The notes beneath the pieces are model-generated. The model worked only from the letters and a program-made list of their open reading frames with translations. It ran no database searches and was not told where the DNA came from. From contig JBBRSP010000002.1 in assembly GCA_038245295.1 (NCBI GenBank), forward strand, positions 224,001 through 288,000: a DNA stretch of 64,000 nt, written 5' to 3'. Below, piece by piece: positions 12,443 through 40,217 of this stretch (position 1 is its first letter; each line of letters starts with the position of its first letter). The position numbers and the translations under genes are program-made. This DNA comes from Candidatus Binatia bacterium. Lineage in GTDB: Bacteria > Desulfobacterota > Binatia > HRBIN30.

Positions 12443-14422
12443 ATGCTGAACCCGGCGCGCCTGAATGCCGAGTGGCTCGAGGCCGACGGGCTTGGAGGCT
12501 TTGCATCGGGCACGGTGAGTGGGGTGCGGACGCGTCGCTACCACGCCCTGTTGCTGACGGCGACCAAACCGCCGGGCGGGCGTATGGTCCTGGTCAATGG
12601 ATTCGAGGCGTGGGTGGAAACGCCCAACGGTCGCTACGCGTTGAGCTCGCAGTTCTACGATCCGGGTGTGCGTCATCCGAACGGTGCCGATTGCATCGAA
12701 AGCTTCTCGGTTGATCCGTGGCCGACCTGGGAGTTCCGAGTGGAAGACGGAACGCGCGTCAGACAGGAAATCTGCGTCGCTCATGAGAGCAGCCGCGCTG
12801 CGGTTACGTGGACGCTGGTGGATCCGTCCGACGGCGTGCGGTTGCACGTGCGCCCGTTGCTCTCCGGGCGCGACTACCATGCCCTGCACCACGAGAATCC
12901 GGCGTTCCGCTTCGACGCGGCCGTGGTGGAAGATCGTGTCGTTTGGCAACCCTATGCCGGCCTGCCGTCGATCGTTGTACATCACACCGGCACCTACGAG
13001 CAGGCGCCCGAATGGTACCGCAATTTCCTCTACACCGCGGAGCGCGAGCGCGGCCTCGACTGCTGCGAGGATCTGGCGTCGCCCGGGATTTTCCGTTTCG
13101 ATCTCGGCGCCAAGAGCGCGACATGGATCCTGGAGGCAACAAGCCGGACGGGCATGGCGGCTAGATCGCGGACGGCGGCAACGACGGTGCTCAAGCGTCT
13201 CCGCGACGGCGAACGCAAACGTCGCCGTGCGCTGCCGACGCGCCTCGAGCGTGCCGCCGGCGCGTATGTCGTGAAGCGCGGCAACGGCAAAACCATCGTT
13301 GCCGGTTATCCATGGTTCACCGATTGGGGACGCGACACGTTCATCGCCTTGCGCGGGTTGTGTCTGGCGACCGGCCGACACGACGACGCGTATGACATCC
13401 TGGTGCAGTGGGCCGGCGCTGTTTCGCAAGGCATGCTGCCGAATCGCTTCGCTGACGCCGGGGACACGGTCGAGTTCAACGCCGTCGATGCATCGTTGTG
13501 GTACGTCGTTGCCGTCTATGAGTTCTTCGTGGCCAGGCGGCAGGCCAATCTCCCGGTGGCCGCGGGCGACGTGCGGGCTCTGCGTACCGCCATCACGGCA
13601 ATCTTGAGCGGCTACAGCGCCGGCACACGCTACGGCATCGCCATGGATTCCGACGGGTTGTTGCGCTGCGGTGAGCCGGGCGTCCAACTGACTTGGATGG
13701 ATGCCAAGGTTGGCGATTGGGTCGTGACGCCGCGCATCGGCAAGCCGGTCGAGGTGCAGGCCTTGTGGGTCAATGCGCTGCGGATCGGGGCTGGGCTGAA
13801 ACAATGGGACCTATGGGACCAAGGCGACGAAGGGGACGGGCGTGAGCGTCAGTGGGCAGATCTGGCGGAGCAGGCGACGCGGTCGTTTCGCGAGCGCTTT
13901 TGGAATCCGCAGCGCCGCATGCTGTTCGATGTGGTGGATGCCGATCACCAGCCTGGAAAGACCGACGCGGCATGTCGGCCGAATCAGATCTTTGCGGTCG
14001 GCGGATTGCCATTCAGTCTACTCGACGGTGAGGTTGCCGCGGCGGTGGTCGAGATCGTGGAGAAGAAGCTTCTGACGTCGATTGGCCTGCGTTCTCTGGC
14101 GAGCGATGAACCGGGATATTGTCCGCGTTATCGCGGCGGGGTGCGCGAACGCGATGCGGCGTATCACCAGGGCACGGTGTGGCCGTGGCTGCTTGGTGCC
14201 TTTGTCGAAGCGTGGGTCAGCGTGCGCGGCAATACATCCGCCGCGAAGGCCGAAGCGCGGTCGCGATTCTTGGAGCCGCTCCTGGGACACCTCGACACGG
14301 CCGGGTTGGGTCATCTTCCCGAAGTCGCCGACGGCGAGCCGCCGCACACGCCGGGTGGATGTCCGTTTCAAGCCTGGTCGGCGGGTGAGGCGTTGCGGTT
14401 GGATCGTCTCGTCCTCGCCTGA
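12443..14422 (+). CDS. Glycogen debranching enzyme (amylo-alpha-1,6-glucosidase, archaeal type)
   Basis: EWLEADGLGGFASGT, TRRYHALL, AGYPWFTDWGRDT, LTWMDAK, YHQGTVWPW, GCPFQAWS. Confidence 0.95.
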   Translation: MLNPARLNAEWLEADGLGGFASGTVSGVRTRRYHALLLTATKPPGGRMVLVNGFEAWVETPNGRYALSSQFYDPGVRHPNGADCIESFSVDPWPTWEFRVEDGTRVRQEICVAHESSRAAVTWTLVDPSDGVRLHVRPLLSGRDYHALHHENPAFRFDAAVVEDRVVWQPYAGLPSIVVHHTGTYEQAPEWYRNFLYTAERERGLDCCEDLASPGIFRFDLGAKSATWILEATSRTGMAARSRTAATTVLKRLRDGERKRRRALPTRLERAAGAYVVKRGNGKTIVAGYPWFTDWGRDTFIALRGLCLATGRHDDAYDILVQWAGAVSQGMLPNRFADAGDTVEFNAVDASLWYVVAVYEFFVARRQANLPVAAGDVRALRTAITAILSGYSAGTRYGIAMDSDGLLRCGEPGVQLTWMDAKVGDWVVTPRIGKPVEVQALWVNALRIGAGLKQWDLWDQGDEGDGRERQWADLAEQATRSFRERFWNPQRRMLFDVVDADHQPGKTDAACRPNQIFAVGGLPFSLLDGEVAAAVVEIVEKKLLTSIGLRSLASDEPGYCPRYRGGVRERDAAYHQGTVWPWLLGAFVEAWVSVRGNTSAAKAEARSRFLEPLLGHLDTAGLGHLPEVADGEPPHTPGGCPFQAWSAGEALRLDRLVLA

Positions 14423-14426
14423 CCGC
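14227..14426 (+). repeat. Left 200-bp direct repeat (3' end of the debranching gene)
   Basis: Aligns without gaps to 25723-25922; 20 mismatches by hand count. Confidence 0.92.
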
Positions 14427-14435
14427 TTTGCACGG

Positions 14436-14550
14436 CCTTCGAGACGCCGCCAAACTCCCTTCGAGACGGCACAAGAATAAGGTGCCTCCTCAGGAGGCGG
14501 CTCCGCAGGCCGAACGGCTGGAGTGCTGAACTCCGAGCCAAATCTCCGTT
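14436..14550. repeat. Nested CCTTCGAGACG..CTCCTCAGG palindromic repeats
   Basis: One copy sits inside the loop of another; same family as 54671-54781. Confidence 0.7.
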
Positions 14551-14720
14551 TGCCCTGAGGTCGTTACGCCCACCCCGCCCGCGCCGCCGCCAGAAGTGTC
14601 GGAACCGACGGCGGCGTGAGTAAAATATCGGCCGGCTTCGGCGCGGCCGTGGCGATCCAAGGATCGCCACAAATGCCGCAGCGCCACGGCGCTGCGCCAG
14701 ACACTCGATAGAGTGAATTC

Positions 14721-14755
14721 AAAAAGGCGCCGCTCGGGAGAACCCGAGCGGCGCC
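14721..14755 (-). terminator. Intrinsic terminator on the minus strand
   Basis: Minus strand reads ggcgccgctcggg-ttct-cccgagcggcgcc-ttttt. Confidence 0.8.
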
Positions 14756-15387
14756 GTCGTTTGGGTCCGCTCGGTCCCCAAGATGCATTGCCGCCTTTTT
14801 CTGCCCATGCCGGTGTCGTTGCGCGATACAAGCGCGCCGACTGTCCTCACTTGGACAACATTCGCTACCTCACAGTGAGAACGAGGGGTGACGAGCTGGC
14901 TGCCGGGAATGGATGCGTTCCTCGGCGTCGATCCCCGGGTCGACTGAACGACTGGCGCAGCCAGTCAGCGCGGACCTGTGCCCGCTATGACAGTGCGCCC
15001 GGCCGCTCCGCGTGCTTCCGGCCCGCGAATTCCTCCGAGCGTCGGCTGACGGACCCTTTGTCCACCCCGTATACGGTCGCCAGTGCATGATTCGACCCTT
15101 CGAACATCGTCCGATACTTACCCTTCATGTGGCTCACGGCCAAATCGGGCTTTAATCCGGGCTATCCGCTGAGGGCGAGATGCGGTGCCGAGCTGTTGGG
15201 GCCCCTTTCGCCGCTCAACAAGCCACCGCAGCGCATGCGTTGGGCTTCGAATGCAGCGGCGTATAGCCGTCGTTGAATTTCCGGGCCGCGCTGAGGCGGA
15301 CCTGATCCATTCCCATGTAGCGGGTCAAGGTGGTGTGGGGCAGACCGGTCTCGCACGCGCCGAGCCCTTGGTCGAGTCGATCGGCGC

Positions 15388-18300
15388 ATGACCTGCTCCG
15401 CTTGCGGACATCAGAATCGGGAGGCCGCGAAGTTCTGAGAGGAATGCGCCGAGCCCCTCAGGCACCAGTGCGCTCGTTGCGGCTCGGAGCTGCGTCTGTC
15501 GGCGAAGTTTTGCGATGAGTGCGGTGCCTCCACGGGAGCCTCGCCCCCCCAGAGAGCACCGGTGTCCTACACGCCCAAGCACCTCGCCGACAAAATCCTC
15601 CAATCCAAGTCCGCTCTCGAAGGCGAGCGCAAGCAGGTGACGGTGCTCTTCGCCGACGTGAAGGGCTCGATGGAGCTGGCGGAGCAGCTCGATCCGGAGG
15701 AGTGGCACGCGATCCTCGACCGCTTCTTCGCCATCCTCTCCGACGGCGTGCACCGCTTCGAGGGCACGGTGAACCAGTACACCGGCGACGGTATCATGGC
15801 GCTCTTCGGCGCGCCGATCGCGCACGAGGATCATGCCCAGCGCGCCTGTTACGCGGCGCTGCAGCTGCGCGACGAGATTGCTCGCTACGCCACCGAGGTG
15901 AAGCGCGAACACGGCATCGGCTTCTCGACGCGCATGGGCCTCAACTCCGGCGCCGTCGTCGTCGGCAGGATCGGCGACGATCTGCGCATGGACTACACGG
16001 CGCAGGGGCACACCGTGGGCCTGGCGCAGCGCATGGAGAGCCTCGCCGAACCCAACACGTGCTACCTGACGGCGACGACGGCAGCGCTGGTGCGCGGCTA
16101 CTTCGCCCTCGATGATCTCGGCGACTTCCGCGTCAAGGGCGTCGGCGAGCCGGTGCGCGTTCATCGCCTCGCCGGCATGGGCAGCGCGCGCACGCGCTTC
16201 GACGTTTCGCGCTCTCGCGGTCTCTCTCATTTCGTCGGCCGCTCGGCCGACCTGCGTACGCTCGAGGACGCGCTGGAGCAGACCGCGGCGGGCAACGGCC
16301 AGGCGGTGGGCGTGGTGGCCGAGGCGGGGACCGGCAAGAGCCGGCTGTGCTTCGAGTTCCTCGAGCGCTGCCGTGCCCGCGGTATGCACGTCTACGAGGG
16401 CCGCGCCGTCGCCCACGGGCGCAACATTCCGCTGCTGCCGATCCTGGAAGTGTTCCGCGCCTACTACGGCATCACGCTCGAGGACGACGATCGCGGCGCG
16501 AGAGAGAAGATCGCCGGGCGCATGGTGCTGCTCGACAACAGCTTCGCCGATGCACTGCCGCTGCTCTTCGACTTTCTCGGTGTTGCCGATCCGCAGCGCC
16601 CCGCACCACGGCTCGACCCGGAAGCGCGCCAGCGCCAGATCCTCGCCGTCATGCGCCAGGTGATCCAGAGCGTCAGCGAGGAGCAGCCGACGATCACGCT
16701 GATCGAGGATCTGCACTGGATCGACGAAGCGAGCGGCCAGTTCCTGGCCCACATGGTCGATGCGCGGGCCGGTAGCCGCAACCTGCTGCTCCTCAACTTC
16801 CGCCCGGAGTACCACGCCGAGTGGATGCAGAAGTCGTGGTACCGGCAGATCCCGCTGACGCCGCTCGGGAAGGACGCGATCGCCGAGCTGCTGGCGGACC
16901 TGCTCGGCACGGACCCGAGCATTGCCACACTGGCCGGCCCGATCCACGCGCGCACCGGCGGCAACCCGTTCTTCACCGAGGAATTGGCGCAGACGCTGAT
17001 CGAGTCGGGGCATCTCGAAGGCACGCGCGGCGCCTACCGCCTGGTGACGCCGATCGAGCGGCTCGCGGTGCCGGCCACCGTGCAGGCGGTGTTGGCGGCG
17101 CGCATCGATCGGCTGCCGGAGCGCGAGAAGCGGTTGCTGCAAGTGGCGTCGGTGATCGGCAAGGACTTCGCCGAGCCGCTGCTCGCGGCTGTGGCGGAGC
17201 TGCCACTCGACGAGATGAAGGCGGCCCTCGCCGCCCTGCGCCGCGCCGAGTTCATCCACGAGCAGGTGATCTACCCGGTGGTCGAGTACTCGTTCAAGCA
17301 TCCGCTGACGCAGGAGGTGGCGCTCGGCAGCCAGCTCAAGGAGCGCCGCCGCCAGGTACACGCCGCGGTGGCGCGGGCGATCGAGCGGCAGCATTCCGAC
17401 CATCTCGACGAGCGCGCGCCGCTGCTGGCGCACCACTGGGAGGAGGCCGGCGAGGCGCTCGGCGCGGCGCGCTGGCACCGGCGCGCCGCCGAGTGGGTGG
17501 GGTACACCGACTTTGCCGCCTCAACCCACCACTGGGGGCGAGTGCGCGCGCTCCGGCGCGAGCTGCCGGACGATCGCGAGGCTGCGGCGCTGGGCTTCGC
17601 TGCGTGCAGAATGCTTCTGAGCATGGGCTGGCGCGTCGGCATGGGACTCGAGGAGGCGCGTACGTTGCTGGACGAAGGACAAGGGCTCGCGAATGCGATC
17701 GGGGATCGACGCTCTTCGCTCTACCTGTCGATGGTCTATGGCCGCACGCTCTGCGGCGCCGGCGAGGTGGCTGCGTATCTCGAGCTGATGATCGAGATCC
17801 GGCGCGCGGCGCTCGAGCTCGACGACTTCGCGCTGCAAGCCGGAGCCTGGGTTTTGCTCACCGACGGCTTCTGCTTCGCAGCACGGTTTCCCGAAGCGCT
17901 ACAAAGCGCGGAGGAAGGGCTCGCGCGCGTCCCCCGTTTCATTTCTCGGGACGGTTGGGTCAACGGCCTCAATCCCTACACCGTGATGTCGTTCTGGCGC
18001 GGCTTCAGTTGCAGCTGGATGGGCCGGCTGCCCGAGGCGATCGAGGAGCTCGCGCGCTGTCGCCGTCTCTGCGAGGAGGACGGCACGCCGGAGATGATCG
18101 GCTATGCCTTCCTCTACGCTGCCGAAGCCCATTATTACGCCCACGACGCAGAGCGGGCACTCGCGTGCGCCCGCCAGGTCGAGGAGATCAGCCGCCAACT
18201 CGGCGAACCGCCTGCATTGGCCGCATACGCGCAGTTCGCCTTTGCCTTGGCACACCTCGCGGCTGGGAGGGTCGCGGATGCGATCGAGGCGGCGCGTAGC

Positions 18301-18747
18301 GTGCTCGACCTGATGGGACGGGTGGAGAAGTTCCAGGCAGGCATGGCCGTGGCCCTGCTGGCCGAGGCCATGCTGCAAGCCGGTGATCCTGCGGCTGCGC
18401 TGTCGGCGGCGGACGAGGCGATCGCGCTTTGCCGCCGTTCAGAGCGCGGCAACTACGAAGCCGCGGCCCATGGCGTCATCGCCCGTGCATTCCTCCGTCG
18501 CGATGGAGCGGCGGCTCGGGGCGCCGTCGAAGTGGCGCTCGCCAGCGCTGCCGCGCTGATCGAACGCACAGGAGCGAAGACGCTCGCACCGGCGCTCTGC
18601 GAGTGGCGCGCCGAGCTCGCCGCCGTGCTCGGCGATGAAGCGACGCGCGTGGAATGGCTGCGCGAAGCTCATCAACTCTACCAACAGATCGGCGCGCCAT
18701 TGCAGGCGGAACGCATTGCCCGGCTGCTAGCGGAAACCACCTTGTGA
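15388..18747 (+). CDS. Double zinc ribbon-class III cyclase-STAND ATPase-TPR protein, copy 1; in-frame TGA at 15436-15438 (uninterrupted ORF 15562-18747)
   Basis: MTCSACGHQNREAAKF*EECAEPLRHQCARCG..FCDECG is in frame with the downstream ORF; FADVKGS, TGDG, Walker A EAGTGKS, LIEDLHW, GGNPFF, FKHPL. Confidence 0.85.
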
Positions 18748-21700
18748 ACCTGCTCGAGATCATCCGCGACGCACGGGACCACCTGCGGGAGAACGGCCGC
18801 GTGTCGCTGCGCGTGCTGCGCCGGCAGTTCGAGCTCGACGACGAGGGGCTCGACGAGCTGATCGAGGAGCTCGTCGACGTGCAGCGCGTGGCGCGTCGAG
18901 AAGAGAACGTGCTCGTCTGGGCCGGGAACGAAGACCCGGCGCCGTCCGCCGCCCGCCGTCCACCCTCCGCCTCTTCTCCGGCCAGCCCCCAGTCCCCAGC
19001 CCCCAGCCCACTGAGCTACACGCCGAAGCATCTCGCCGACAAGATCCTGCAGTCCAAGTCCGCCCTCGAAGGCGAGCGCAAGCAGGTGACGGTGATGTTC
19101 GCCGACGTGAAGGGCTCGATGGAGCTGGCCGAGCAACTCGATCCGGAGGCATGGCACCAGATCCTCGACCGCTTCTTCGCCATCCTCACCGAAGGCGTGC
19201 ACCGCTTCGAGGGCACGGTGAACCAATACACCGGCGACGGCATCATGGCGCTGTTCGGCGCGCCGATCGCGCACGAGGATCACGCCCAGCGCGCCTGCTT
19301 TGCGGCGCTGCACCTGCTCGAAGAGGTGCGCGGCTACTCGCGCGAGGTGAAGCGCGCGCACGGGCTCGACTTCGCTGTGCGCATCGGGCTGCATTCCGGC
19401 GACGTCGTTGTCGGCAAGATCGGCGACGATCTGCGCATGGACTACACGGCGCAGGGCCACACCGTCGGCCTGGCGCAGCGCATGGAGAGTTTGGCGGAGG
19501 CCAACAGCTGCTTCGTCAGCGGTGCGACGGCGGCGCTGGCGGCCGGCTATTTCGCCTTCGACGATCTCGGCGCCTTTCGCGTCAAGGGCGTCACCGAACC
19601 GGTGAACGTGTTCGTGCTGCGCGGCCTCGGCGCCGTGCGCACGCGCTTCGATGCGTCGCGGGCCCGCGGTCTCACGCGCTTCGTGGGTCGCGACGATGAC
19701 ATGCACACGCTCGAAGCCGCTCTCGCCCAGGCGCAGGCGGGGCACGGCCAGGTGATCGGCGTCGTGGCGGAGGCAGGAACGGGAAAGAGCCGCCTCTGTT
19801 TCGAGTTCGCCGAGCGTTGTCGCGCCCGCGGCATGACGATCAACGAGAGCCAGGCCGTGGCGCACGGGAAGAACGTCCCGCTCCTGCCGATCCTGCAGGT
19901 GCTGCGCGCCTACTACGGGATCGGCGAACGCGACGACGATCGCATGGTGCGCGAAAAGATCGCCGGGCGCCTGTTGCTGCTCGACGAGAGCTTCCGCGAG
20001 GTCCTGCCGGTGATCTTCGACTTCTTCAGGGTGCCCGACCCGGAGCGGCCGGTGCCCCGCATGGATCCAGAGGCGCGCCAGCGCCTGTATTTCGCCGTGC
20101 TGCGCAAAGTAGTGCAGCGCGACGATCCCTCCGGCCGCCCGCCGGTCACGTTGATCGAGGATCTCCACTGGATGGACCCGGCCAGCGAGGCGTTCCTCAC
20201 CGAGTGGGTGGAAGCGATCGGCGCGTCCGGCCGCTTGCTGGTGGTGAACTTCCGCCCCGAGTACCGCGCCGCCTGGATGCAGAAGTCGTACTATCGACAG
20301 ATCGCCCTCACGCCGCTCGGGCCCGAAGCCATCCGCGAACTGCTCTCGGACCTGTTGGGCAACGACGAGAGCACGGCGGGCCTCGCCGATACGATCCACG
20401 CGCGCAGCGGCGGCAACCCCTTCTTCGCCGAGGAGATCGTGCAGACGCTGATCGAGTCCGGAAACCTGCAAGGGAGCCGCGGCAGCTATCGCCTGACGAC
20501 ACCAGTGGCGCGACTCGACGTGCCGCCTTCCGTGCGCGGACTGTTGGGCGCGCGCATCGACCGGCTCGACGAGTGCGACAAGCAGGTGCTGCAGACCGCC
20601 GCCGTCATCGGCAAGGAGTTCTCCGAGCCGATTCTCCGCCAGGTGCTGGCTGCGACCGCCGGAGACGCTCTGCCCGAAACCCAGCTCGCCGAGGCGCTCG
20701 CGACCTTACGGACGCGCGAGTTCCTGCACGAGACCGCCCTCTACCCGGTCGCCGAGTACACGTTCAAACATCCGCTGACGCAGGAGGTAGCACTCGGTTC
20801 GCAACTGCAGGAGCGGCGCCGGCAGATCCACGCGGCAGTGGCGGCGGCGATCGAAGCGACGCACGCCGACAAGCTCGACGAGCACGCGGCGCTACTGGCA
20901 CACCACTGCACGCAGGCGGGCGAGGCATTGGCGGCAGCGCAATGGCACGCGCGCGCCGCGACATTCCTCGCACGGAGCGACGTCACGGAATCAGCACGCC
21001 ACTGGCAGCAGGCGCGCGAGGTGTTGTGCAAGGTCGCCGACGACCCGCGCGCGCCGGCGCTCGGCGCCAACGCCTGTTTTCACGTGCTCGGCCTCGCGTT
21101 CCGGCTGGGTGTACCGGAGCCCGAGGCGCAAGCCGTGTTTCGCGAAGGGCTCGATTGGGCTGCGCGCACGGACGACCCGCTCTGGGCGGCCCGGTTGCAC
21201 CAAGCTATGGCGGTGTTCGAGAGCGGCAACAATCGGTTCGATGCCGGGCTCCGCCACGGCGTGGAATGGGAACGCATCGTGCGCTCGTTGCCCGACGCGG
21301 AGCGCCGTGCCTGCGCCCTCTGGCCGACTCTTGTGCCATTGCTCGGTAAGGGAGACTTGGCCGCCCTGCGGATCAACTGCCAGCAGCAGATCGCCTGGAC
21401 CGAGACGCATCCCGAATGGGGCATGCGAGATTGGGGCGTCAGTGCACTCGCGGACGTGCTCAACACCCTAGCGTGGGTTGAGTTCCGGGATGGGACTTTC
21501 GAGCAGGCTCGTGCGTTGACCGAGCGCTCGATCGACATCGCACGAGGGCTGAACAACGAGACCGAGGTGTGGGGCTTGGGGGTCCTCGGAGATCTGGGAT
21601 TCCTCGCCGGTGACCCGGAGCTGTCTCGAGCAGCGGTCGAACGTGGCGTCCGAATCAGCGAACCACTGGGGGTGTTGGCACGCCAAATTGCCCACAGTCG

Positions 21701-22199
21701 GCTCGGTCGACAGCTCTTGCTCGACGGGCGGGCGGCTGAGGCGGCGGAGGCGCTCGAGTACGCCCAGTCGTTCTGCAAAGACGGAAACCGCACCCAGGAG
21801 CTGTTCATCGCACAAGCGCTGGCACAGGCAAGGCTCGAAGCAGGCGAACCCGCGCGCGCGCGGGCGATGGCCGAAGCCGCGCTGGAGGACTCTCTCAAGC
21901 TCGGCGCCCGCCTCTGCGCGATCGATTCCGCGCTGGTGTTGTCGGCCGCCCTGCGCGCCGAGACGGGCCTGGGAGCCGCGCCGTGGATCGAAGAGGTGCT
22001 CGCGACCGCCGACCGCCTGATCGCCGAAACCGGCGCTCGAAACATGACCGCATTCGTGCTCGTGGAGCGCGCGGCGCTATCTGCCCTGCGTGGCGACAGG
22101 CGGCAGCAGGCGGAGCATCTCCGCCGCGCCCACGAGGCGTTCACACGGATGGGTGCCACAGGCCAAGCAGCCCGCCTCGCGCGGGAGCTCAGCTCATGA
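18744..22199 (+). CDS. wHTH-like-class III cyclase-STAND ATPase-TPR protein, copy 2
   Basis: GTGA overlap with copy 1; N-terminus LRENGRVSLRVLRRQFELDD; same cyclase and ATPase motifs; divergent helical C-terminus. Confidence 0.9.
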   Translation: MNLLEIIRDARDHLRENGRVSLRVLRRQFELDDEGLDELIEELVDVQRVARREENVLVWAGNEDPAPSAARRPPSASSPASPQSPAPSPLSYTPKHLADKILQSKSALEGERKQVTVMFADVKGSMELAEQLDPEAWHQILDRFFAILTEGVHRFEGTVNQYTGDGIMALFGAPIAHEDHAQRACFAALHLLEEVRGYSREVKRAHGLDFAVRIGLHSGDVVVGKIGDDLRMDYTAQGHTVGLAQRMESLAEANSCFVSGATAALAAGYFAFDDLGAFRVKGVTEPVNVFVLRGLGAVRTRFDASRARGLTRFVGRDDDMHTLEAALAQAQAGHGQVIGVVAEAGTGKSRLCFEFAERCRARGMTINESQAVAHGKNVPLLPILQVLRAYYGIGERDDDRMVREKIAGRLLLLDESFREVLPVIFDFFRVPDPERPVPRMDPEARQRLYFAVLRKVVQRDDPSGRPPVTLIEDLHWMDPASEAFLTEWVEAIGASGRLLVVNFRPEYRAAWMQKSYYRQIALTPLGPEAIRELLSDLLGNDESTAGLADTIHARSGGNPFFAEEIVQTLIESGNLQGSRGSYRLTTPVARLDVPPSVRGLLGARIDRLDECDKQVLQTAAVIGKEFSEPILRQVLAATAGDALPETQLAEALATLRTREFLHETALYPVAEYTFKHPLTQEVALGSQLQERRRQIHAAVAAAIEATHADKLDEHAALLAHHCTQAGEALAAAQWHARAATFLARSDVTESARHWQQAREVLCKVADDPRAPALGANACFHVLGLAFRLGVPEPEAQAVFREGLDWAARTDDPLWAARLHQAMAVFESGNNRFDAGLRHGVEWERIVRSLPDAERRACALWPTLVPLLGKGDLAALRINCQQQIAWTETHPEWGMRDWGVSALADVLNTLAWVEFRDGTFEQARALTERSIDIARGLNNETEVWGLGVLGDLGFLAGDPELSRAAVERGVRISEPLGVLARQIAHSRLGRQLLLDGRAAEAAEALEYAQSFCKDGNRTQELFIAQALAQARLEAGEPARARAMAEAALEDSLKLGARLCAIDSALVLSAALRAETGLGAAPWIEEVLATADRLIAETGARNMTAFVLVERAALSALRGDRRQQAEHLRRAHEAFTRMGATGQAARLARELSS

Positions 22200-23428
22200 A
22201 CTGCCCGGCGTGCCAGCACGAGAACCGGCCAGGTGCCAAATTCTGCGAGGAATGCGCCGCACCGATCAGGAACCTGTGCATCGGCTGTGGCGCGGAGCTG
22301 CGTTTAACCGCGAAGTTCTGCGATGAATGTGGCGCGCCGGTGGGCGCCTCAACTCCGGATGTTGCGGCGGGTTTCAAACCCGCCGCAACAAGGGAGTCGC
22401 GTTCCCCTCGCGCCTACACCCCCAAGCACCTCGCCGACAAAATCCTGCAGTCGAAGTCCGCCCTCGAAGGCGAGCGCAAGCAGGTCACCGTCCTCTTCGC
22501 CGACGTGAAGGGCTCGATGGAGCTGGCCGAGCAACTCGATCCGGAGGTATGGCACCAGATCCTCGACCGCTTCTTCGCCATCCTCACCGAGGGCGTGCAC
22601 CGCTTCGAGGGCACGGTGAACCAGTACACCGGCGACGGCATCATGGCGCTGTTCGGCGCGCCGATCGCGCACGAGGATCATGCGCAGCGCGCTTGCTTCG
22701 CAGCGCTGCACCTGCGCGACCGCGTGCGCCAGTACGCCGACGAGCTGCGCCTCGATCCCGGCGTCAACTTCTCCTTCCGCCTCGCCCTCAACTCGGGCGA
22801 GGTGATCGTCGGCAAGATCGGCGACGATCTGCGCATGGACTACACGGCGCAGGGGCACACCGTCGGCCTGGCCCAGCGCATGGAGCAGCTGGCGCCGGCG
22901 GACGGCATCGCGCTGTCGCAGCACACACAGAAATCGGTCGACGGCTACTTCGCCGTGCGCTCGCTCGGGCCGCTGCGGGTGAAGGGTTCGCGCCAGCCGG
23001 TCGGCGTTTTCGTGTTGGAGGGCGTCGGCAGTCATCGCACCCGCCTCGACACATCGAGGGCGCGCGGGCTTTCGCGCTTCGTCGGCCGCGGCAGTGAAAT
23101 GGAGGCGCTCGAGTCGGCGCTGGCGCGCTCGCTCGAGGGCACGGGCCGCGTTGCCGCGGTCGTCGGCGAGGCGGGGGTCGGCAAGAGCCGGCTCTGCGCC
23201 GAGTTCATCGAGCGCTGCCGCGCCCGCGAGCTCGTCGTCTACGAGGCCCACTGCCCGCACCGGTTTCGAGGGACGTGGTTGCGATTCTCGCGATTGTCCA
23301 GAGAATCGCGAGAATCGCAACCGCGTCCCCGAATCGACGGCTTGCGCCGGGGAGGCGGATGTCCAGCGTTCCCTCCAAGTCAAAGTTGGGCTCTGTCGGA
23401 GAGGTGGACGAGCTGCGGCGCGCGTTAG
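22196..23428 (+). pseudogene. Double zinc ribbon-cyclase-STAND protein, copy 3, truncated shortly after Walker A
   Basis: ATGA overlap; similarity to copies 1 and 2 stops at YEAHCP (~23256), just before a palindromic element. Confidence 0.88.
23265..23333. repeat. GGGAC-ended palindromic element (REPIN/MITE-like)
   Basis: gggacgtggttgcgattctcgcgatt-N8-aatcgcgagaatcgcaaccgcgtccc. Confidence 0.85.
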
Positions 23429-23703
23429 GCGGCGCGGCGCTTGGCCAACGACTCGGCGAGCAAGAGCTTTATCAACGCCTGGTACGGCACATCGCGGGCG
23501 GATGCCGTAGCTTTCAATTGATTGAGCAACTCGGACGGGAGGCGGATCGACACCACTTGCGTCGGAGGAGGTTTGGGAAGCTCGAGGCCGAGGTCTTCAA
23601 AGGTCAACGGGTTGGCCGCCTTGATCATCGCCGATGTGTCGCGAGTATCGTAGTCGCGGATCTCCATACGCCGCGTCCTCGTCGTTCTACGCTTCTGCGC
23701 CAT
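23425..23703 (-). CDS. CopG/RHH-type antitoxin (BrnA-like)
   Basis: VVSIRLPSELLNQLKATASARDVPYQALIKLLL; overlaps the toxin gene. Confidence 0.85.
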   Translation of the reverse strand: MAQKRRTTRTRRMEIRDYDTRDTSAMIKAANPLTFEDLGLELPKPPPTQVVSIRLPSELLNQLKATASARDVPYQALIKLLLAESLAKRRAA

Positions 23704-23974
23704 AGATACGCCTTTCCTGGCGCGAAGCCGGCCTTGCCGTGATAATTCGCACCTTGCGGCCGCGAAGGGTGAAGCCAACCATCAACACGCGAGCCTCCAA
23801 GCTGCGACCATACAACAAATAGCGAGCTTCGCTCCGACTCGAATGTCGCCGGTCCTCGAATAGGCGATAGTGGTCGTCGTAGAATGCACTCTCGGCCTCC
23901 AAGCGCGATACGCCGTGTTTGATTTCATTCTTCTGGACATTCCACTGGTCCCAATCGAAAACGATTTCCTTCAT
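23687..23974 (-). CDS. brnT: BrnT family ribonuclease toxin
   Basis: FDWDQWNVQKNEIKHGVS..EA..F..DRRHS..EARY..RIITARPASRQERRIY. Confidence 0.92.
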   Translation of the reverse strand: MKEIVFDWDQWNVQKNEIKHGVSRLEAESAFYDDHYRLFEDRRHSSRSEARYLLYGRSLEARVLMVGFTLRGRKVRIITARPASRQERRIYGAEA

Positions 23975-24287: not shown

Positions 24288-24478
24288 CCCGGGTCGAGCT
24301 CGGCTACACTGATCGAATCGACGCGTTGTGCGCCTCGGAACGCGTGGACGGTCACGGACGATCCGATTTGCGCACGCACGCCGGCTGGACGAACGTTGAG
24401 CGTTACGCGCTGTCCGGCGTGATTTTTATCGCGTCCGGACGAACGCCGCGCTGGTGATGAGATCCCCGCGGGCAATTG

Positions 24479-25699
24479 GGGACGCGGGCACAATCCGCAC
24501 AATTCCCCGGTTACATGCGCTGACTACAGGCATTGCAGCGATGTATTGCGGCGATTTCGATTGCCGTGGCTATCTCGTACCTTCCTCGCATGCCGCGTGG
24601 CCCTCGTCTGGATGCGCCTCTGGCGCTGCATCACGTCTGGAATCGCGGCATCGAGCGCTGCGACATCTTCCGCGACGACACCGATCGCCTTGACTTCCTG
24701 GCCCGCATCCAGGCTGCCGTTCGTGCCAAGCATTTTGCTGTGTACGCTTGGGCGCTGATGTCGAACCATTTCCACTTGCTGACGCAAACCGGCAACCTCG
24801 GCCTCTCGGCCGCCATGCGCGTCATCGAGGGCGGTTACGCCACATCCTTCAATAAACGCCACCGCCGCTCCGGTCACCTGTTCCAGAACCGCTTCAAGAA
24901 TGTGCTGGTCGGCGAAGACCCCTATCTCCTCGAGTTGCTGCGCTACATTCACTTGAACCCCGTGCGCGCCGGCATTGTGGCCGGTCTCGACGAACTCGAT
25001 CGTTATGCGTGTACCGGTCACGCCGCGATGATGGGAAATCGCATTGTGCCCTGGCACGACCACAACTTCGGTCTCGTGATGTTCGGCGTCGACTTCACCG
25101 AGGCGCGCAACGCCTATCGCTCCTTTGTAGCCGACGGCCTCAACTACCCCGAGCCGAACCTCGACGGTGGTGGACTGCGGCGCAGCCTAGGATTGTGGCA
25201 GCGCCTCAACCCGATGCGGCGCGGCCGCGAAGCCTGGAGCTTCGACGAGCGCATCTACGGCAGCAGCGAGTTCGTCGATTCGGTGCTCGCCGACATCAAC
25301 GCCGACGACACGCTTGAGCCCCGACCACCAGACGCCGGACAACTGCTCCATCACCTTGTTGAGCAACTGGCTCGTTTGACGGGCTTGCAGCCTGCCGAGC
25401 TGCGCTCCAACAGCAAGCGACCCAGTATCGTTCAAGCGCGCCGGGCACTTTGTTACCTCGCCGTCCGCCACGCGGCGCTCCCGGCGCGCCAGGTCGCCTT
25501 GCACTTAGGTGTCCGACCGTACGCCGTCCTGCGCTGCGCCGCAGGCGGAGAACAAGCCCTCCGCAAGATCGGTTGCAGAGCTGCCGAACTGCTCGCCTCC
25601 ACGGCTCATCCGCGCTGATACCGGCCCCGGCTCGCTCACCTTTCGGGACGATGCTTTCATCACACTCGCCAAGAATTGTGCGGATTGTGCCCGCGTCCC
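24479..25699 (+). mobile_element. RAYT-like HUH transposase element bounded by perfect 26-bp inverted repeats
   Basis: gggacgcgggcacaatccgcacaatt at 24479-24504 and its exact reverse complement at 25674-25699. Confidence 0.8.
24590..25618 (+). CDS. REP-associated tyrosine (Y1/HUH) transposase-like protein with C-terminal DnaA_C-like HTH
   Basis: MPRGPR..HHVWNRG, LMSNHFHLL (HUH), GHLFQNRFK, RYIHLNPVRAG; C-terminal ARRALCYLA..QVALHLG. Confidence 0.9.
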   Translation: MPRGPRLDAPLALHHVWNRGIERCDIFRDDTDRLDFLARIQAAVRAKHFAVYAWALMSNHFHLLTQTGNLGLSAAMRVIEGGYATSFNKRHRRSGHLFQNRFKNVLVGEDPYLLELLRYIHLNPVRAGIVAGLDELDRYACTGHAAMMGNRIVPWHDHNFGLVMFGVDFTEARNAYRSFVADGLNYPEPNLDGGGLRRSLGLWQRLNPMRRGREAWSFDERIYGSSEFVDSVLADINADDTLEPRPPDAGQLLHHLVEQLARLTGLQPAELRSNSKRPSIVQARRALCYLAVRHAALPARQVALHLGVRPYAVLRCAAGGEQALRKIGCRAAELLASTAHPR

Positions 25700-25722
25700 G
25701 AAATCGCGAAATCGGCCCCCCC

Positions 25723-25922
25723 CGGCAACACGCCGGCCGCGAAGGATGAAGCGCGGTCGCGATTCCTGGAACCGCTCCTGGGACACCTCGACACGGCCGG
25801 GCTGGGCCATCTTCCCGAAGTCGCCGGCGGCGAGCCGCCGCACACGCCGGGCGGATGTCCATTTCAAGCCTGGTCGGTGGGTGAGGCATTGCGCCTCGAT
25901 CGCATCGTCCTCGCCTGACCGC
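25723..25922 (+). pseudogene. Right 200-bp direct repeat: displaced 3' fragment of the debranching gene
   Basis: GNTPAAKDEARSRFLEPLLGHLDTAGLGHLPEVA..GCPFQAWS..VLA*. Confidence 0.92.
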
Positions 25923-26023: not shown

Positions 26024-26443
26024 TTACGGCTTCATGCTTGGCAATGCCACCATCTTCAGTCCGGGGATGTCTTCAAAGTCCTTGAGATTCGATGTCAGGA
26101 GCTTGAGGTCGTGTTGAATCGCCTGCGCGGCCAACCATAGGTCATTGATACGGACGTACGGATCTCGGCCGCTTTTCTTCAGCTGAGCCGCAAGTGATCC
26201 GAATATCTCGGCGGTGTCGATGGTGATTCGGAGTTGCGGCTTGCGCCGTAAGCGTCGGAGGGTGGCACCGGCTCGTTCCTTCAGGGGACCACCGCGTAGC
26301 ACGGCGAAGCCAAACTGTAGTTCGGCGACATTGATCGGCGACAAGTACACCGGCTCCTGGCCGGTGATCTTGTGAATGTCCGCGGCACCGAGCGCGCCGC
26401 GCTCGACGGCGATCCAGATGCTGGTGTCGATTAGCCAACCCAC
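26024..26443 (-). CDS. vapC: VapC PIN-domain toxin
   Basis: LIDTSIWI, NVAEL, NDLWLAAQA, LLTSNLKDF..IPGL. Confidence 0.92.
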   Translation of the reverse strand: MGWLIDTSIWIAVERGALGAADIHKITGQEPVYLSPINVAELQFGFAVLRGGPLKERAGATLRRLRRKPQLRITIDTAEIFGSLAAQLKKSGRDPYVRINDLWLAAQAIQHDLKLLTSNLKDFEDIPGLKMVALPSMKP

Positions 26444-26706
26444 GGGTTCTTCAGCTCGGACACTCGGCCACGCCGGCTCTTGCGCTGCGACGAGATGACG
26501 CGCGACAGAGCCTCGGCGGTCTTGTCGTCGAGCGTTCGATAGAGGTCACCGAAGACCTCCATGGCATCCTGCCGCTGCGCCTCGGGTACGAGTCGCGCTA
26601 CCCGGCGACGGTTACGCACCAGCACGATCTCTTCCTGGTCGCGTTCCAGTCGGTCGAGCACAGAGCTGAAGTTGCGCGCCACCTCGGTTGCCGAGAGGGT
26701 TTTCAT
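26431..26706 (-). CDS. Phd/YefM family antitoxin
   Basis: MKTLSATEVARNFSSVLDRL..EEIVLVRN..VARLVP; overlaps vapC. Confidence 0.9.
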   Translation of the reverse strand: MKTLSATEVARNFSSVLDRLERDQEEIVLVRNRRRVARLVPEAQRQDAMEVFGDLYRTLDDKTAEALSRVISSQRKSRRGRVSELKNPWVG

Positions 26707-26789
26707 TGTCGCGACGATATCTGATCGAATCTGATTCTACAAGAATTGGCGTACTGGTTCCGGGCTCGCGCTCTGGATGCGGCTTGGCA

Positions 26790-26879
26790 GAACCAGAGGG
26801 CTCAGCCGATCGAGGAAGGTGCGGCGGCCATCGTCACAACGCAGATATCGCGTTCGATGCCACGGGCGATGACGTACAT
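26790..26879 (-). pseudogene. Frameshifted 5' remnant of a second RAYT-like transposase
   Basis: YVIARGIERDI then, in another frame, DDGRRTFLDRLSPLV; compare HVWNRGIERCDIFRDDTDRLDFLARI at 24590. Confidence 0.55.
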
Positions 26880-26952
26880 CACCTTCGCCCGACGCTTAGA
26901 AGCGAACTGGTTCGCAGTTGCGGCGACCTCTGGAGGATGCAATCTTGTGCAC

Positions 26953-27168
26953 ATGGATACGCCTCTGACCGCTGAGGATCTCTTGCCGTGGCTCCTCAAG
27001 CTGCCACACGATGAGCAACTGCGTCTGGCCAGACTCGCGTTGCATGCAGCTTCAGGCGGCGGGCGCGACGACCAACATGCCTACCAGGTTGCCCCAACCA
27101 CGAAGGAAGAATTTTCGATCGCTGAGGATTCCCTGACATGGGACGGCGAAGGCTGGGACGAGTTTTGA
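26953..27168 (+). CDS. Small acidic-tailed protein, putative antitoxin
   Basis: MDTPLTAEDLLPWLLKLPHDEQLRLA..EDSLTWDGEGWDEF; ends 3 bp before the mazF-like ORF. Confidence 0.6.
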   Translation: MDTPLTAEDLLPWLLKLPHDEQLRLARLALHAASGGGRDDQHAYQVAPTTKEEFSIAEDSLTWDGEGWDEF

Positions 27169-27171
27169 CCC

Positions 27172-27393
27172 ATGCGCCGCGGAGAGATTCGCTGGTACAC
27201 GTTTGCGCCGCCGAATAAACTGCGTCCTGTGCTGCTTCTCACCCGAGATGCGGTGATCAATACCTTGAATAAGGTTATCGCCGTAGCGGCAACACGAACG
27301 ATCCGGGGACTTTCAGCGGAAGTGCTTCTTTCACCGGACGATGGCATCGGTACCCACGCGCAATACGACGGGATCGACGCGCCGACGATTTGA
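27172..27393 (+). pseudogene. mazF: Truncated PemK/MazF toxin fused in frame to a HigB toxin C-terminus
   Basis: MRRGEIRWYTFAPPNKLRPVLLLTRD..TRTIRGL..DG, then IGTHAQYDGIDAPTI*. Confidence 0.75.
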
Positions 27394-28739: not shown

Positions 28740-29007
28740 GGACGAGGGACACCCACCGGTTGAAATCCCCGAGATCGCGTTCGGTGCCGAGCATACGGCG
28801 CACGGACATCAGCACGGCCTCGTTGTCCGCCACGCTCCCATGGATCGCGACCGACAGCGTATCGGCGCGCCGTTGCGTGACACATACGATTGCCGCTTCT
28901 GCGAATCCTCCGAACGCACGCAAGTACTGGCCATTCACCGCGTAGATGTCCACCAGATTGCTCGACAGACGCCGGAGCGCGCTCACCGTGAGATCCAGCC
29001 GGCGCAA
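28740..29007 (-). pseudogene. N-terminal fragment of AlkA-like DNA-3-methyladenine glycosylase
   Basis: RLDLTVSALRR..N.VD..YLR..VRRMLGTERDLGDF; the frame then runs antisense into the epoxide hydrolase. Confidence 0.5.
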
Positions 29008-29063
29008 CGACTGTACGCCGGCAACGGATGAACCTATACCGGATCACAGGAAGCAGGAGATCT

Positions 29064-29282
29064 ATGCCGGCGAAACGATTCAAAAGCGGGGATCACGTCT
29101 CGTGGAATTCGGAAGCCGGTCGTGTCCGCGGCACTATCAGTCGCGTCATCAGATCGGAGATCGAGTTCAAGGGCTACACCGTCCATGCGAGCAAGGACGA
29201 GCCGCAGTACGAGATCAAGAGCGACACGACCGACCATATTGCGATGCACAAGGGATCAGCGCTCACGAAGATCGGGAAGTGA
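29064..29282 (+). CDS. DUF2945 / Hva1-Tudor-like small protein
   Basis: FKSGDHVSWNSEAG..ASKDEPQYEIKSDTTDHIAMHKGSAL; AGGAG RBS. Confidence 0.88.
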   Translation: MPAKRFKSGDHVSWNSEAGRVRGTISRVIRSEIEFKGYTVHASKDEPQYEIKSDTTDHIAMHKGSALTKIGK

Positions 29283-29839
29283 GTCGCACGATCTTCACTG
29301 TCGGCCATTCGACGCGGACAGTCGGCGAGTTGGTCGCGCTTCTGCGACAGGTCGACGTGGACCTGCTCGTGGACGTGCGCTCCATCCCGCGCTCGCGCGC
29401 GATGCCGCAGTTCAATATCGACCGGCTACCAGACTCTCTCGCCGTCGAGGGCATCGGCTACCAGCATCTGCTCTTACTGGGCGGGCGGCGTCACCATCCC
29501 AAGGGCGCGCCGCCGTCGACGAATACGCTCTGGCGACTGTTGGCGTTCCGCAACTATGCGGATTACGCGGAAACCGATGCATTCCGCGCCGGCCTCCATG
29601 GCTTGCTCGCGTTTGCGCAACAGCATCGTTGCGCGATCATGTGCGCCGAAGCCGTGTGGTGGCGGTGTCATCGCCGCATCATCGCCGATCACCTGTTGGC
29701 CCGCGGCATTCCGGTGCAGCACATCATGGGATTAGGACAGGTGACGCCAGCGACCCTCACACCGGGTGCGCGTGTGCTGGACGAGACGCCGCGCTATCCG
29801 GCGCCTAACGAAGATGGGTCGACCGCGAGCGGCAGTTGA
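29279..29839 (+). CDS. DUF488 family protein
   Basis: IFTVGHSTR, LVDVRSIPRSR, LGGRR, MCAEAVWWRCHRRII; GTGA overlap. Confidence 0.92.
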   Translation: MSRTIFTVGHSTRTVGELVALLRQVDVDLLVDVRSIPRSRAMPQFNIDRLPDSLAVEGIGYQHLLLLGGRRHHPKGAPPSTNTLWRLLAFRNYADYAETDAFRAGLHGLLAFAQQHRCAIMCAEAVWWRCHRRIIADHLLARGIPVQHIMGLGQVTPATLTPGARVLDETPRYPAPNEDGSTASGS

Positions 29840-38474: not shown

Positions 38475-40217
38475 ATGGACTATGCGGTTCTTGATAGTAC
38501 GCAGCGCTCGTTGCGCGACGAAGTCTTCGGACTGACCGCGCAGCTGCGTTGCAGACTTGCCGCATGGGATGAGGCGCCGCAGGCTGCTGCCACCCGCGAG
38601 CAACTTTTAAGCGCATCGGCGGCGTTGGCGGCCAGTAGCCGCCAGGCGCGCATCGCTCATCTGGATTCGTGGGCCGATCTTCTCAATCGATACGCTCAAC
38701 TCACCGGGCACGGCGCTATTTCTGGCGCAAACGCTGGGATTCGCACCGCACTCGGCTTGTTCGAATCGGTCCTTGAGCCCTGCCTGGAAGGCCTTACCCG
38801 CAGTCGGGTCGAGCGGGTGGATGCCGCCCTTCGGAGCTGCGTACCCGAAGAAGCGCATCGTTGGATCGACATCGAAGCCAGCACATTTCACAACTATATC
38901 GAAGAGTTGAGATCTCCTCCGGCGCCACCTGTCGTAGCGCCGCCAGTCCCGACGGTGCCTGCCGAAGCCGGTGCCACCGAAGAAGCCGACGAAGATGACG
39001 ACTTCTCGCGTGAGCTCCTGGCGGCTTTCCGCGAGGAGGTCACGGAGTGTCTGGAACGTTGCGACTCGTTGCTTGTCCGGCTCGAAAAAGCCGATGATCC
39101 GAGCGCCGAATTAACCTCGTTATTCCGTGAGTTTCACACCATGAAGGGGGCGGCGGCGGCCGTCGACCTGGCTGCTGCGGCTGCGCAGTTGCACGAGGGC
39201 GAATCATTATTGGAGTCGTTGCGTGACGGTGAGCTCAATGTTGAGCGCTCCGCCTTGGTCGACTTCCTCTTCCGTCTGCTCGATTCGGTAAAGGCGTTGA
39301 TCAATCAGAGTCTTGGCGAAGAAGTACCCGCCGGGGCGGTGATTGCTGATCTGCACGCCGAGCTCGCTCATCTACTGACGGATGATTCAGGTCGCCGCCC
39401 TGTCGCTGAGCCAGCCACTCTCCAACCTCAACCTGAGGCGATGCCCGACGCGCCCTCAATGGTCGTCGAGTCAGGCACGAGCCCTGCGGCCGACCAGGGG
39501 GCGCTCCTCGCCGACCTGCGTCGCAAGGCTACCGCCGGACAACTCGACCCGCAGCTTCTTGCCCTGATTGATGCTCTGGATGAGCGTGCCCGTCACTATT
39601 CCGAGGTAGCCGCTTCCCTGCAGGAGGAAGTCGAACACCTGCGCGCCGTCCCAGCTGAGGTTCTGCTGCGTCGCCTCGAACGCCCGGTGCGCGATGCCGC
39701 CCGGCAGGAAGGCAAGCTGGTAGAGCTCCACCTCTCGGGGGAGGATGTTCGTCTTCCCCGCTCGATCGCCGATCGCTTGGCCGGTCCGCTATTGCACCTC
39801 GTTCGCAATGCTGTTGCTCACGGTATCGAAGCTCCGGCGCTGCGCCAGGCAGCAGGCAAGCCGCGCGCCGGCAACATCGAGGTGTCGGTGCGGCTTGAGG
39901 GCACCGAGATCATCGTTTCTGTTGCTGACGACGGCGGAGGCCTCGATCTCAAGGCGATTCGCGCCAAGGCCGCGGCGCGCGGCTGGGTAGAGCCTGATCG
40001 CACCTTGGATGAGCACGTGTTTATCCCGTTCTTGTTTCGTCCCGGTTTTTCGACGCGCAACAGCGCCTCGGAGCTCGCGGGCCGCGGCGTCGGGCTCGAC
40101 GTTGTCGCCGCCGAGGTGGAAGCCCTGGAGGGCTGGATCGAGGTCAAGTCAGAGCCTGCCAAGGGCACACGTTTCACCATTTATCTGGCGCGTGACGGCG
40201 CAGGAGTGAAGCGATGA
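38475..40217 (+). CDS. CheA-like histidine kinase (Hpt + HATPase) lacking the CheW domain
   Basis: LFREFHTMKGAA, HLVRNAVAHGIE, DDGGGLD, FRPGFST, GRGVGLDVV; ends soon after GTRFTI. Confidence 0.85.
   Translation: MDYAVLDSTQRSLRDEVFGLTAQLRCRLAAWDEAPQAAATREQLLSASAALAASSRQARIAHLDSWADLLNRYAQLTGHGAISGANAGIRTALGLFESVLEPCLEGLTRSRVERVDAALRSCVPEEAHRWIDIEASTFHNYIEELRSPPAPPVVAPPVPTVPAEAGATEEADEDDDFSRELLAAFREEVTECLERCDSLLVRLEKADDPSAELTSLFREFHTMKGAAAAVDLAAAAAQLHEGESLLESLRDGELNVERSALVDFLFRLLDSVKALINQSLGEEVPAGAVIADLHAELAHLLTDDSGRRPVAEPATLQPQPEAMPDAPSMVVESGTSPAADQGALLADLRRKATAGQLDPQLLALIDALDERARHYSEVAASLQEEVEHLRAVPAEVLLRRLERPVRDAARQEGKLVELHLSGEDVRLPRSIADRLAGPLLHLVRNAVAHGIEAPALRQAAGKPRAGNIEVSVRLEGTEIIVSVADDGGGLDLKAIRAKAAARGWVEPDRTLDEHVFIPFLFRPGFSTRNSASELAGRGVGLDVVAAEVEALEGWIEVKSEPAKGTRFTIYLARDGAGVKR

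Follow-up and report, generated by a model that had tools for sequence, protein, structure and literature searches.

Pycsar systems consist of the cyclase PycC and an effector that binds a cyclic nucleotide monophosphate (cNMP), and integron cassette arrays offer an analogy for gene units that are shuffled. The SWACOS, as Leipe et al. in 2004 are said to have described them, are STAND proteins with an adenylyl cyclase or a Ser/Thr kinase. In the mycobacterial protein Rv0386, a glutamine presumably occupies the lysine site of the cyclase. In the available parts of the literature, SWACOS is a classical STAND clade (PMC8195603; PMC13581612; the name also occurs in PMC13236601), defence and non-defence STAND clades are interspersed (PMC13581612), and AfsR is a non-immune STAND precedent (10.64898/2026.09.02.748808). 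The window analysed here is a 64-kb stretch of the Candidatus Binatia genome G000 (contig C2, 224001–288000) and contains a tandem gene array at 15388–23428. Judged by sequence, its proteins belong to a large known kind, the class III cyclase-STAND-TPR proteins, which abound in bacteria from soil and sediment. The locus shows how a repertoire of such proteins is rebuilt across family boundaries: a gene body is exchanged together with the head of the next gene.

Three co-oriented genes on the plus strand (15388–18747, 18744–22199 and 22196–23428) are coupled by GTGA and ATGA overlaps, as the first-pass annotation had described. Copy 1 (c1, 1119 codons) encodes a double zinc ribbon, a linker, a class III cyclase, a STAND NTPase and a TPR. 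Copy 2 (c2, 1151 amino acids (aa)), whose GTG start overlaps the c1 stop, has a head of about 60 aa resembling a winged helix-turn-helix (wHTH), then linker, cyclase, STAND and a MalT-like TPR. Pfam detected Guanylate_cyc and AAA_16 in all three copies, DZR in copy 3 (c3) and weak TPR_12 matches in c1 and c2. The N-termini differ as annotated: the c1 zinc ribbon shares 71% of its nucleotides (nt) with the DZR-matching head of c3, and the c2 head has a single weak FeoC-like match (E 5e-4), and in the ESM Atlas nothing beyond small unnamed clusters (score 0.92–0.94). Near-identical DNA had been claimed for the YTPKHLADKIL-cyclase segment. This holds for 300 nt from YTPKHLADKIL onward, with 92–94% nt identity between the three copies; the YTPKHLADKIL motif may be a cyclase-transducer element. 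This conserved crossover segment, named cycA (15567–15866, 19016–19315 and 22414–22713, plus strand), spans only the first half of the cyclase; the second half is 57–69% identical in aa. Beyond cycA, the aa identity of c1 and c2 is 69% in the remaining cyclase, 65–66% in the NTPase and 23% in the TPR, so divergence along the genes is not uniform and the C-termini share little, again as first noted.

Only c1 and c2 of the three annotated cyclase-STAND-TPR genes are complete. The c3 remnant (22196–23257, plus strand) comprises the zinc ribbon, the cyclase and the first ~85 aa of the NTPase. Family homology stops at 23257, ~25 codons past Walker A, where a palindrome found throughout the genome starts (REP-like, 23263–23336, 97% identical to a copy on contig C5); the reading frame continues through unrelated sequence until 23428. 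c3 is thus not a cyclase-STAND-TPR gene, being truncated by a genome-wide palindromic repeat. A contig of sequencing run X1 crosses the break without any difference, which rules out an assembly error as the cause. The body type of c3 is that of a SAM-headed paralogue on contig C6 (94% aa identity in the second cyclase half), the one with a SAM head among three further YTP-type genes on C6 and C9 of G000.

The unit of exchange, a new result, is the body of gene n plus the head of gene n+1. Unit B, the c2 body with the c3 zinc-ribbon head (19016–22336, plus strand), was recovered by blastn as one block in G036 (87.7% nt identity), G025 (85.5%) and G007 (93.6%; the contig begins inside the cyclase). 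These genomes represent other genera or families, and the unit has different heads before it and different bodies behind it. Unit A comprises the c1 body and the start of the c2 head (15548–18843, plus strand). The c1 body has 86.6% nt identity to gene four of the G036 array, in which the order of the c1 and c2 bodies is reversed, and in G029 a c1-type body is followed by the c2 head (94% over 94 nt). The c2 body carries the wHTH head in G000; in G036 and G025 it is joined to zinc-ribbon heads, which differ from each other. Among the fetched loci, head sets differ between genomes: the best match of the c1 head in the G036 array loci has 73% identity, and the c2 head has no close match there.

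A protein linkage test with 62 heads and 1339 cross-genome pairs (heads with bodies <200 aa were dropped) supported this offset unit. In the 10 pairs with matching upstream tails (>=60%), heads were 98, 93, 89, 84, 82, 80, 77, 77, 66 and 48% identical, and the heads' own bodies were at background (47–70%). Among family-upstream pairs with unmatched tails, heads of at least 75% identity occurred in 1/134. Pairs of the same body with scorable heads had heads of at most 50% identity in 15 of 19 cases; solo orthologues retain their own heads (59–70%). Because blocks of body and next head recur with other flanking heads and bodies, crossovers appear to lie mainly within the first ~100 codons, which are conserved, and to be rarer beyond them. 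Identical runs of 24–52 nt between the window copies cluster in the cyclase. Mosaics in relatives have breakpoints near body residues 240, 480 and 600, and one joins a c1-like cyclase-NTPase to another sensor type. The suggestion that the shared core allows sensor swapping thus holds for recombination through the core and for sensor swaps at further breakpoints in relatives; the dominant exchange seems to be that of a whole cyclase-STAND-TPR body with the next gene's head. It is very probable that such units are shuffled by recombination and transferred.

Homologues (E<=1e-60) occur in 33/41 related genomes, and cycA matches (E<=1e-70) in 22/52 genomes of the order, with 14 candidates scored per genome; G006 has at least 40. 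Tandem arrays were found in G036, G025, G044, G006, G016, G007 and others, and many end in head-plus-cycA remnants. Conserved synteny, the pattern expected of core genes, was absent: array matches of relatives are not beside the glycogen-debranching (GDE) gene that lies upstream in the window. The family matched 170 plasmid records (E<=1e-50), and 50,697 phage records contained no full-length homologue. In G036 (L033:826–8619), a gene after the array and a second P450 encodes a wHTH-cyclase-STAND protein of 2597 aa that contains six or more SnoaL-like domains.

The aa/nt/four-fold-site identities of the c2 body are 90/88/71% to G036, 90/86/66% to G025 and 94/94/86% to G007. For gyrB, they are 73/70/46%, 71/70/46% and 80/74/39%. 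Since the body is far more alike than gyrB, the comparison indicates its recent horizontal transfer. gyrB is the sole core control, as rpoB was not found in G000 with the query used; GDE proteins share 64–65% aa with G007 and G025. Ratios of non-synonymous to synonymous substitution (dN/dS) in pairs of the same type are 0.18–0.31 for the TPR and 0.04–0.18 for the core. Sensors of one type are, by this measure, under purifying selection throughout, and positive selection on the TPR was not found at the domain level. The array had been called diversifying, with dN/dS across paralogues as the proposed check. The low TPR ratios weaken this description and place the diversity between old sensor types.

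By domain and motif, c1 and c2 are assigned to the STAND NTPases and c3 to a truncated member. AAA_16 scores above its cut-off, the motifs GxGKSR, EDLHWxD and GGNPFF are present, and G254–R259, D382/W385/D387 and G466/P468 are invariant in 38 sequences. The kinase/cyclase fusion model TIGR03903 matches residues 19–1008 (E 9e-87, below the model cut-off). An AlphaFold2 model of the c2 body, built with 38 sequences, has a mean predicted local distance difference test score of 85 and comprises cyclase, NTPase, helical and winged-helix domains and a TPR superhelix. It is poor in the N-half of the cyclase, the weak stretches being residues 1–24, 68–84 and 130–148, and no active-site geometry is claimed. 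The top Foldseek match was the STAND-TPR protein 6mfv, followed by Avs3; the nucleotide-binding domains of ORC, CED-4 and plant NLRs were also among the fold matches. The c2 sensor superimposes on MalT domain III (Z 28.5, root-mean-square deviation 3.8 over 356 residues) in a tie with generic APC/C TPRs; Rap-type peptide sensors rank next. The NLR-like STAND-TPR architecture proposed from the sequence is thereby supported in motifs and predicted fold. The predicted winged helix ends with FxHxL, whose invariant His may be equivalent to the F/Y-HD latch (10.64898/2026.09.02.748808).

Candidate outputs are encoded on other contigs of G000, and in relatives a P450-cNMP gene often precedes such arrays. 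Cytochromes P450 with a C-terminal cNMP-binding domain (G-E...R-S-A motif) are located at C35:58811–60619 in G000 and at L031:13526–15394, and are 73–86% identical across four families of the order. They were found in 16/52 genomes, 14 of the 22 cycA-positive and 2 of the 30 cycA-negative ones, in a hand tally among related genomes. The same leader head directly follows the P450 in 7/12 loci; of the other five, three lack a head, one carries a degenerate head and one has no sequence downstream. A second fusion joins a FeeM-like/GNAT acyltransferase (FeeM-like with E 9e-5, below the cut-off) to a cNMP-binding domain (C4:206738–207850 in G000 and L031:12064–13176). Its 10 close homologues, spread over 10 genomes, are all in cycA-positive ones, and in two loci it is divergent from the P450 gene. 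The P450-cNMP fusion is the most specific neighbour of the family, and the co-occurrence, seen among kin that are not independent, is a lead. No paper on these arrays or on the P450-cNMP fusion was found in a literature search that left most subscription papers outside.

On balance, the arrays are probably a shuffled, horizontally shared receptor repertoire that signals to cNMP-gated metabolic enzymes. Homologous recombination in the shared cycA, by crossover or conversion, would permute, add and delete units with the frame kept, and would leave the head-plus-cycA remnants at array ends. Units would move horizontally between genomes, and interspersed toxin-antitoxin (TA) pairs may slow their loss. 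From general STAND biology, the MalT-like TPR is predicted to bind a small molecule or peptide, after which the NTPase would swap ADP for ATP and oligomerise, and the cyclase domains would dimerise and make cAMP or cGMP. The cyclic nucleotide would gate the P450-cNMP and FeeM-like-cNMP enzymes. The heads (zinc ribbon, wHTH or SAM) may be interchangeable accessories. The output likely controls metabolism rather than killing infected cells.

Several observations weigh against this explanation. Linkage at the DNA level is weaker than in the protein test: downstream DNA (>=120 nt, >=75%) is shared by 6/22 same-type pairs versus 8/284 in the background, and the own head by 3/18 versus 14/228. In this test, bodies <950 aa were dropped and 3 of the 22 pairs had a misplaced window due to a frameshift in G025. 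G016_L007_4671r, G044_L061_3325f and the fourth gene of G036 are exceptions to the linkage, and the linked pairs collapse to about six independent junction types. Logan contigs of run X1 break inside all three cycA copies, and phasing across cycA rests on the assembly. Run X1 contained no joints at 99% likeness, as far as contigs that drop rare variants can reveal them. Four-fold-site identity in cycA across the family is 59–78%, compared with 54–76% expected from composition, and within genomes the excess of cycA (3.7 points) is close to that of the NTPase (2.7 points). On the side of the output, the P450 and FeeM-like fusions of G000 are on other contigs than the array, the 200 nt between the C35 P450 and the end of its contig contain no head, and the co-occurrence with cycA is among kin genomes. 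The canonical Lys site of the cyclase is Q in 73/80 sequences and K in 7/80, the Asn site G in 77/80, H in 2/80 and N in 1/80; activity may be low or absent.

Ongoing rearrangement in the source population was rejected, there being no X1 joints at 99% likeness in contigs that drop rare variants; joints in runs X3 and X5 at 85% come from paralogues of other organisms and were not used. The family-wide cycA comparison used 20-codon windows and dropped bodies <640 aa. Its four-fold excess is modest and not specific to cycA, and most cycA identity is therefore attributed to protein constraint and codon bias. These windows do not support strong gene conversion across the family, nor an att-like site that is invariant within cycA; synonymous divergence is clearly low only between the window copies (dS 0.27–0.30 in cycA versus 0.71–1.38 in the NTPase). 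cycA appears to be mainly protein-constrained, with local homogenisation in this window.

An antiphage or anti-competitor pattern-recognition array, in which each TPR would recognise a conserved protein of the invader and the cyclase would raise a Pycsar-like alarm directed at a cNMP-gated effector, is the alternative that survives best, and it is unlikely. The Avs/NLR-like architecture with Avs3 second in Foldseek, the patchy, mobile genes of variable copy number and the domain-level matches of the cyclase to PycC models would all suit it, and sensors of conserved phage proteins could likewise show purifying selection. Such an array would link Avs-type sensing to Pycsar-type signalling. The neighbourhood is mixed, with frequent PIN toxins (7/150) on the defensive side. 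Within 2.5 kb of family genes, 191 open reading frames (ORFs) were surveyed and 150 scanned; the 41 left out were mostly family fragments or opposite-frame ORFs, and some were dropped for number alone. Pfam found 7 PIN, 2 MazF, 3 Phd, 1 MazE, 1 AbiEii, 1 HI1420-type antitoxin and 1 BglII-like nuclease, beside many lipid or redox enzymes. At E<=1e-12, PADLOC matched 8/150, six with generic domains and two as PDC-S01 candidates, and none of the 150 belonged to a complete validated defence system. The Avs models of PADLOC 2.0 (2023, a library without later families) had no match; only PycC cyclase-domain matches were obtained. Genomes contain 8–44 PIN genes; within 1.5 kb of a cycA match were 3/27 in G025, which the defensive role could claim, and 0/8 in G036. 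The cNMP-binding partners, a P450 and an acyltransferase, are not TIR or membrane effectors, and the phage records lack a full-length homologue. The possible defensive role offered by the first-pass annotation is accordingly weak: no Avs model matches, the neighbourhood survey it proposed finds TA genes often and no complete validated system among the 150 ORFs, and the TA neighbours are generic.

The same annotation placed the array inside a TA-rich island, which overstates the surroundings. All three TA-type loci are downstream of the array: BrnT with a CopG-type antitoxin (23425–23974, minus strand), a Phd/PIN pair on the minus strand and, on the plus strand, a short MazF-like ORF that scores below the cut-off, the latter two together at 26024–27393. 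No tRNA was found in the 64-kb window and no integrase among the flanking and neighbour ORFs scanned. A RAYT-like Y1 transposase (24476–25702, plus strand; 24533–25618 for the transposase itself; NF047646 below cut-off) lies between 30-nt inverted repeats. After it comes a duplicate, 200 nt long, of the GDE gene's 3' end (25723–25922, plus strand; 90% identical to 14227–14426). The two duplicates flank the array, the BrnT pair and the RAYT, and the Phd/PIN pair and the MazF-like ORF are outside this bracket. The downstream duplicate directly adjoins the right inverted repeat of the RAYT and is possibly the scar of a RAYT-linked insertion. The 960 nt upstream of the array are a mosaic of genome-wide repeats, including 14434–15170; a 104-nt element therein (15067–15170) recurs beside the SAM-headed C6 paralogue and on the RAYT-bearing contigs C58 and C90. 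The locus is a variable, repeat-rich patch and not a defined island. Its GC content is 0.69 in the array and 0.64 in the whole window. Promoter and terminator scans gave results near chance. The Rfam scan of 9000–33000 (E<=0.1) had one match, below threshold, outside the array and taken as chance, and revealed no credible structured RNA. In many relatives, linkers just upstream of cycA carry in-frame hairpins, palindromic or built of heptamer repeats, that belong to several unrelated families; the c3 linker between head and cyclase has one at 22360–22390 (plus strand). These hairpins turn over faster than the adjoining head or cyclase.

Other features of the window were noted beside the array. 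An in-frame TGA in c1 (15436–15438) is at a zinc-ribbon Cys codon. It is probably a consensus error for TGC, because runs X1 (possibly the source sample) and X2 of the same study both have C at 15438, in one contig each. On this evidence, and with the selenocysteine machinery not searched, selenocysteine or a pseudogene mark was rejected as a likely explanation. In total, X1 contigs differ from the window at four single bases (15438, 19010, 23470 and 26263; two A>C, one T>G and one T>C), all probably consensus errors. A DUF488 protein gene 5.5 kb downstream of the array (28946–29839) matches the PADLOC candidates PDC-M45B and PDC-M19A. At 38475–43822, a CheA-like kinase gene precedes one for a Ser/Thr kinase of 1202 aa, which has TPR, beta-propeller and HEAT-like matches.

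A birth-and-death expansion of an old signalling family is quite unlikely as the whole account. Here, each gene would be an ordinary sensor and cycA shuffling the neutral by-product of the only long high-identity repeat, aided by REP and RAYT elements; there would be neither a selected cassette system nor a particular link with the P450. This scenario has the same recombination mechanism as the receptor repertoire and differs solely on the adaptive value of shuffling. It draws on the large share of protein constraint in cycA identity, on the common remnants and frameshifts, on c3 being cut at a genome-wide REP, on the solo orthologues that retain their heads and on the wide spread of the family, for example over plasmids; a dedicated recombinase was not seen in the ORFs scanned. 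Against it speak intact units that are under purifying selection and have recently passed between families, and the fixed leader head behind the P450 in 7/12 loci. A stronger version of the repertoire is doubtful in turn: a recombinase-free cassette receptor system in which dozens of units are traded between families of the order by crossover in cycA as a coding socket, possibly set off where the RAYT nicks the hairpins upstream, and one messenger acts on a P450 and an N-acyl-amino-acid synthase, both cNMP-gated, so that the NLR-like array has a lipid-metabolite output and not cell death.

The cyclase could be a pseudo-enzyme, a nucleotide-binding dimerisation module with output via heads or partner proteins. 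The Gly (77/80) and Gln (73/80) at the Asn and Lys sites fit this possibility, as does the extreme conservation of the N-half if it forms an interface shared by hetero-oligomers. It is nevertheless very unlikely. The cyclase aligns with CyaB (3r5g; E 1e-26, structural Z 18.6) and retains both metal Asp, the Thr and the Arg; FxD..GS is present in 95 sequences and GDG in 91/92 family members. In the accessible part of a mycobacterial study, the Asp residues are said to bind the metal while Asn and Arg stabilise the transition state, and a cyclase-ATPase with a Gln-Asn pair is reported to have adenylyl and guanylyl cyclase activity (10.1101/2024.03.06.583649). The linked genes for cNMP-binding fusions and the free exchange of heads also argue against a pseudo-enzyme. 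Two of six canonical catalytic residues are altered, and the canonical Lys/Thr and Asn/Arg pairs are incomplete, with Thr and Arg kept. These changes make a canonical adenylyl cyclase less likely and are still compatible with activity; cyclic-nucleotide synthesis is plausible on the conserved residues. No experimental study of the YTPKHLADKIL subfamily was found in the literature search. Ten of 92 family members, for example L152:17, have the canonical-Lys motif FVDKFTGDG, even inside an otherwise Gln body type; this mix suggests that substrate preference was switched through cycA exchange.

That the shuffling is an artefact of misjoins at the repeated cycA in metagenome assemblies is hardly credible: the X1 contigs do break in cycA and every compared genome is an assembled bin, but the window copies share no identical run of more than 52 nt, both head junctions are inside single X1 contigs with flat depth, and head/body sets differ between genomes in the fetched loci regardless of phasing.

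The array proteins can thus be placed among the known systems. Like integron arrays, the arrays have reordered, horizontally shared units, interspersed TA pairs and a recurring leader gene. Unlike integrons, they had no integrase among the ORFs scanned and no attC-like site found, a search made without an attC model; their unit is offset from the gene boundaries and the crossover segment is coding. With Pycsar, they share the class III cyclase and, in relatives, linked genes for cNMP-binding fusions. They differ in the merely domain-level PycC matches, the STAND-TPR gating, the P450 and FeeM-like partners and the array locus without an effector gene; 0/16 cNMP-domain matches of G000 are on the array contig. 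The effector-STAND-TPR layout and horizontal mobility resemble Avs and other bacterial NLR antiviral STANDs, as far as these are covered in the available part of PMC13581612. Its text and seven supplements do not contain the word cyclase, and three larger supplements may classify this clade. The effector of the array is a cyclase and not a nuclease or protease, and no Avs model matches. The array proteins fail both the Avs models and the test for a Pycsar effector. The mycobacterial Rv0386, Rv1358 and Rv2488c share the cyclase-ATPase-TPR order and non-canonical catalytic residues; unlike these, as described in the accessible part of the source, the array proteins have no C-terminal LuxR HTH, possess extra N-terminal heads and occur in arrays (10.1101/2024.03.06.583649). 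The fusion of a class III cyclase to an AAA_16-type STAND NTPase and a TPR is the architecture of the SWACOS. Within it, the YTPKHLADKIL subfamily, the replacement of Lys by Gln and Asn by Gly, the coupled and permuting tandem arrays and the exchangeable DZR, wHTH and SAM heads are distinctive. Both the fold and the size of the sensor correspond to those of MalT domain III (Z 28.5), which connects the array to the non-immune STAND regulators MalT and AfsR and to Rap-type TPR sensors; in contrast to MalT and AfsR, the output is an enzyme instead of a DNA-binding domain, and the genes are multi-copy and shuffled. The array proteins would act as STAND switches of the MalT/NLR type whose output is a cyclase, in a SWACOS architecture, and the cNMP-gated P450 and FeeM-like enzymes are candidates for what they control.

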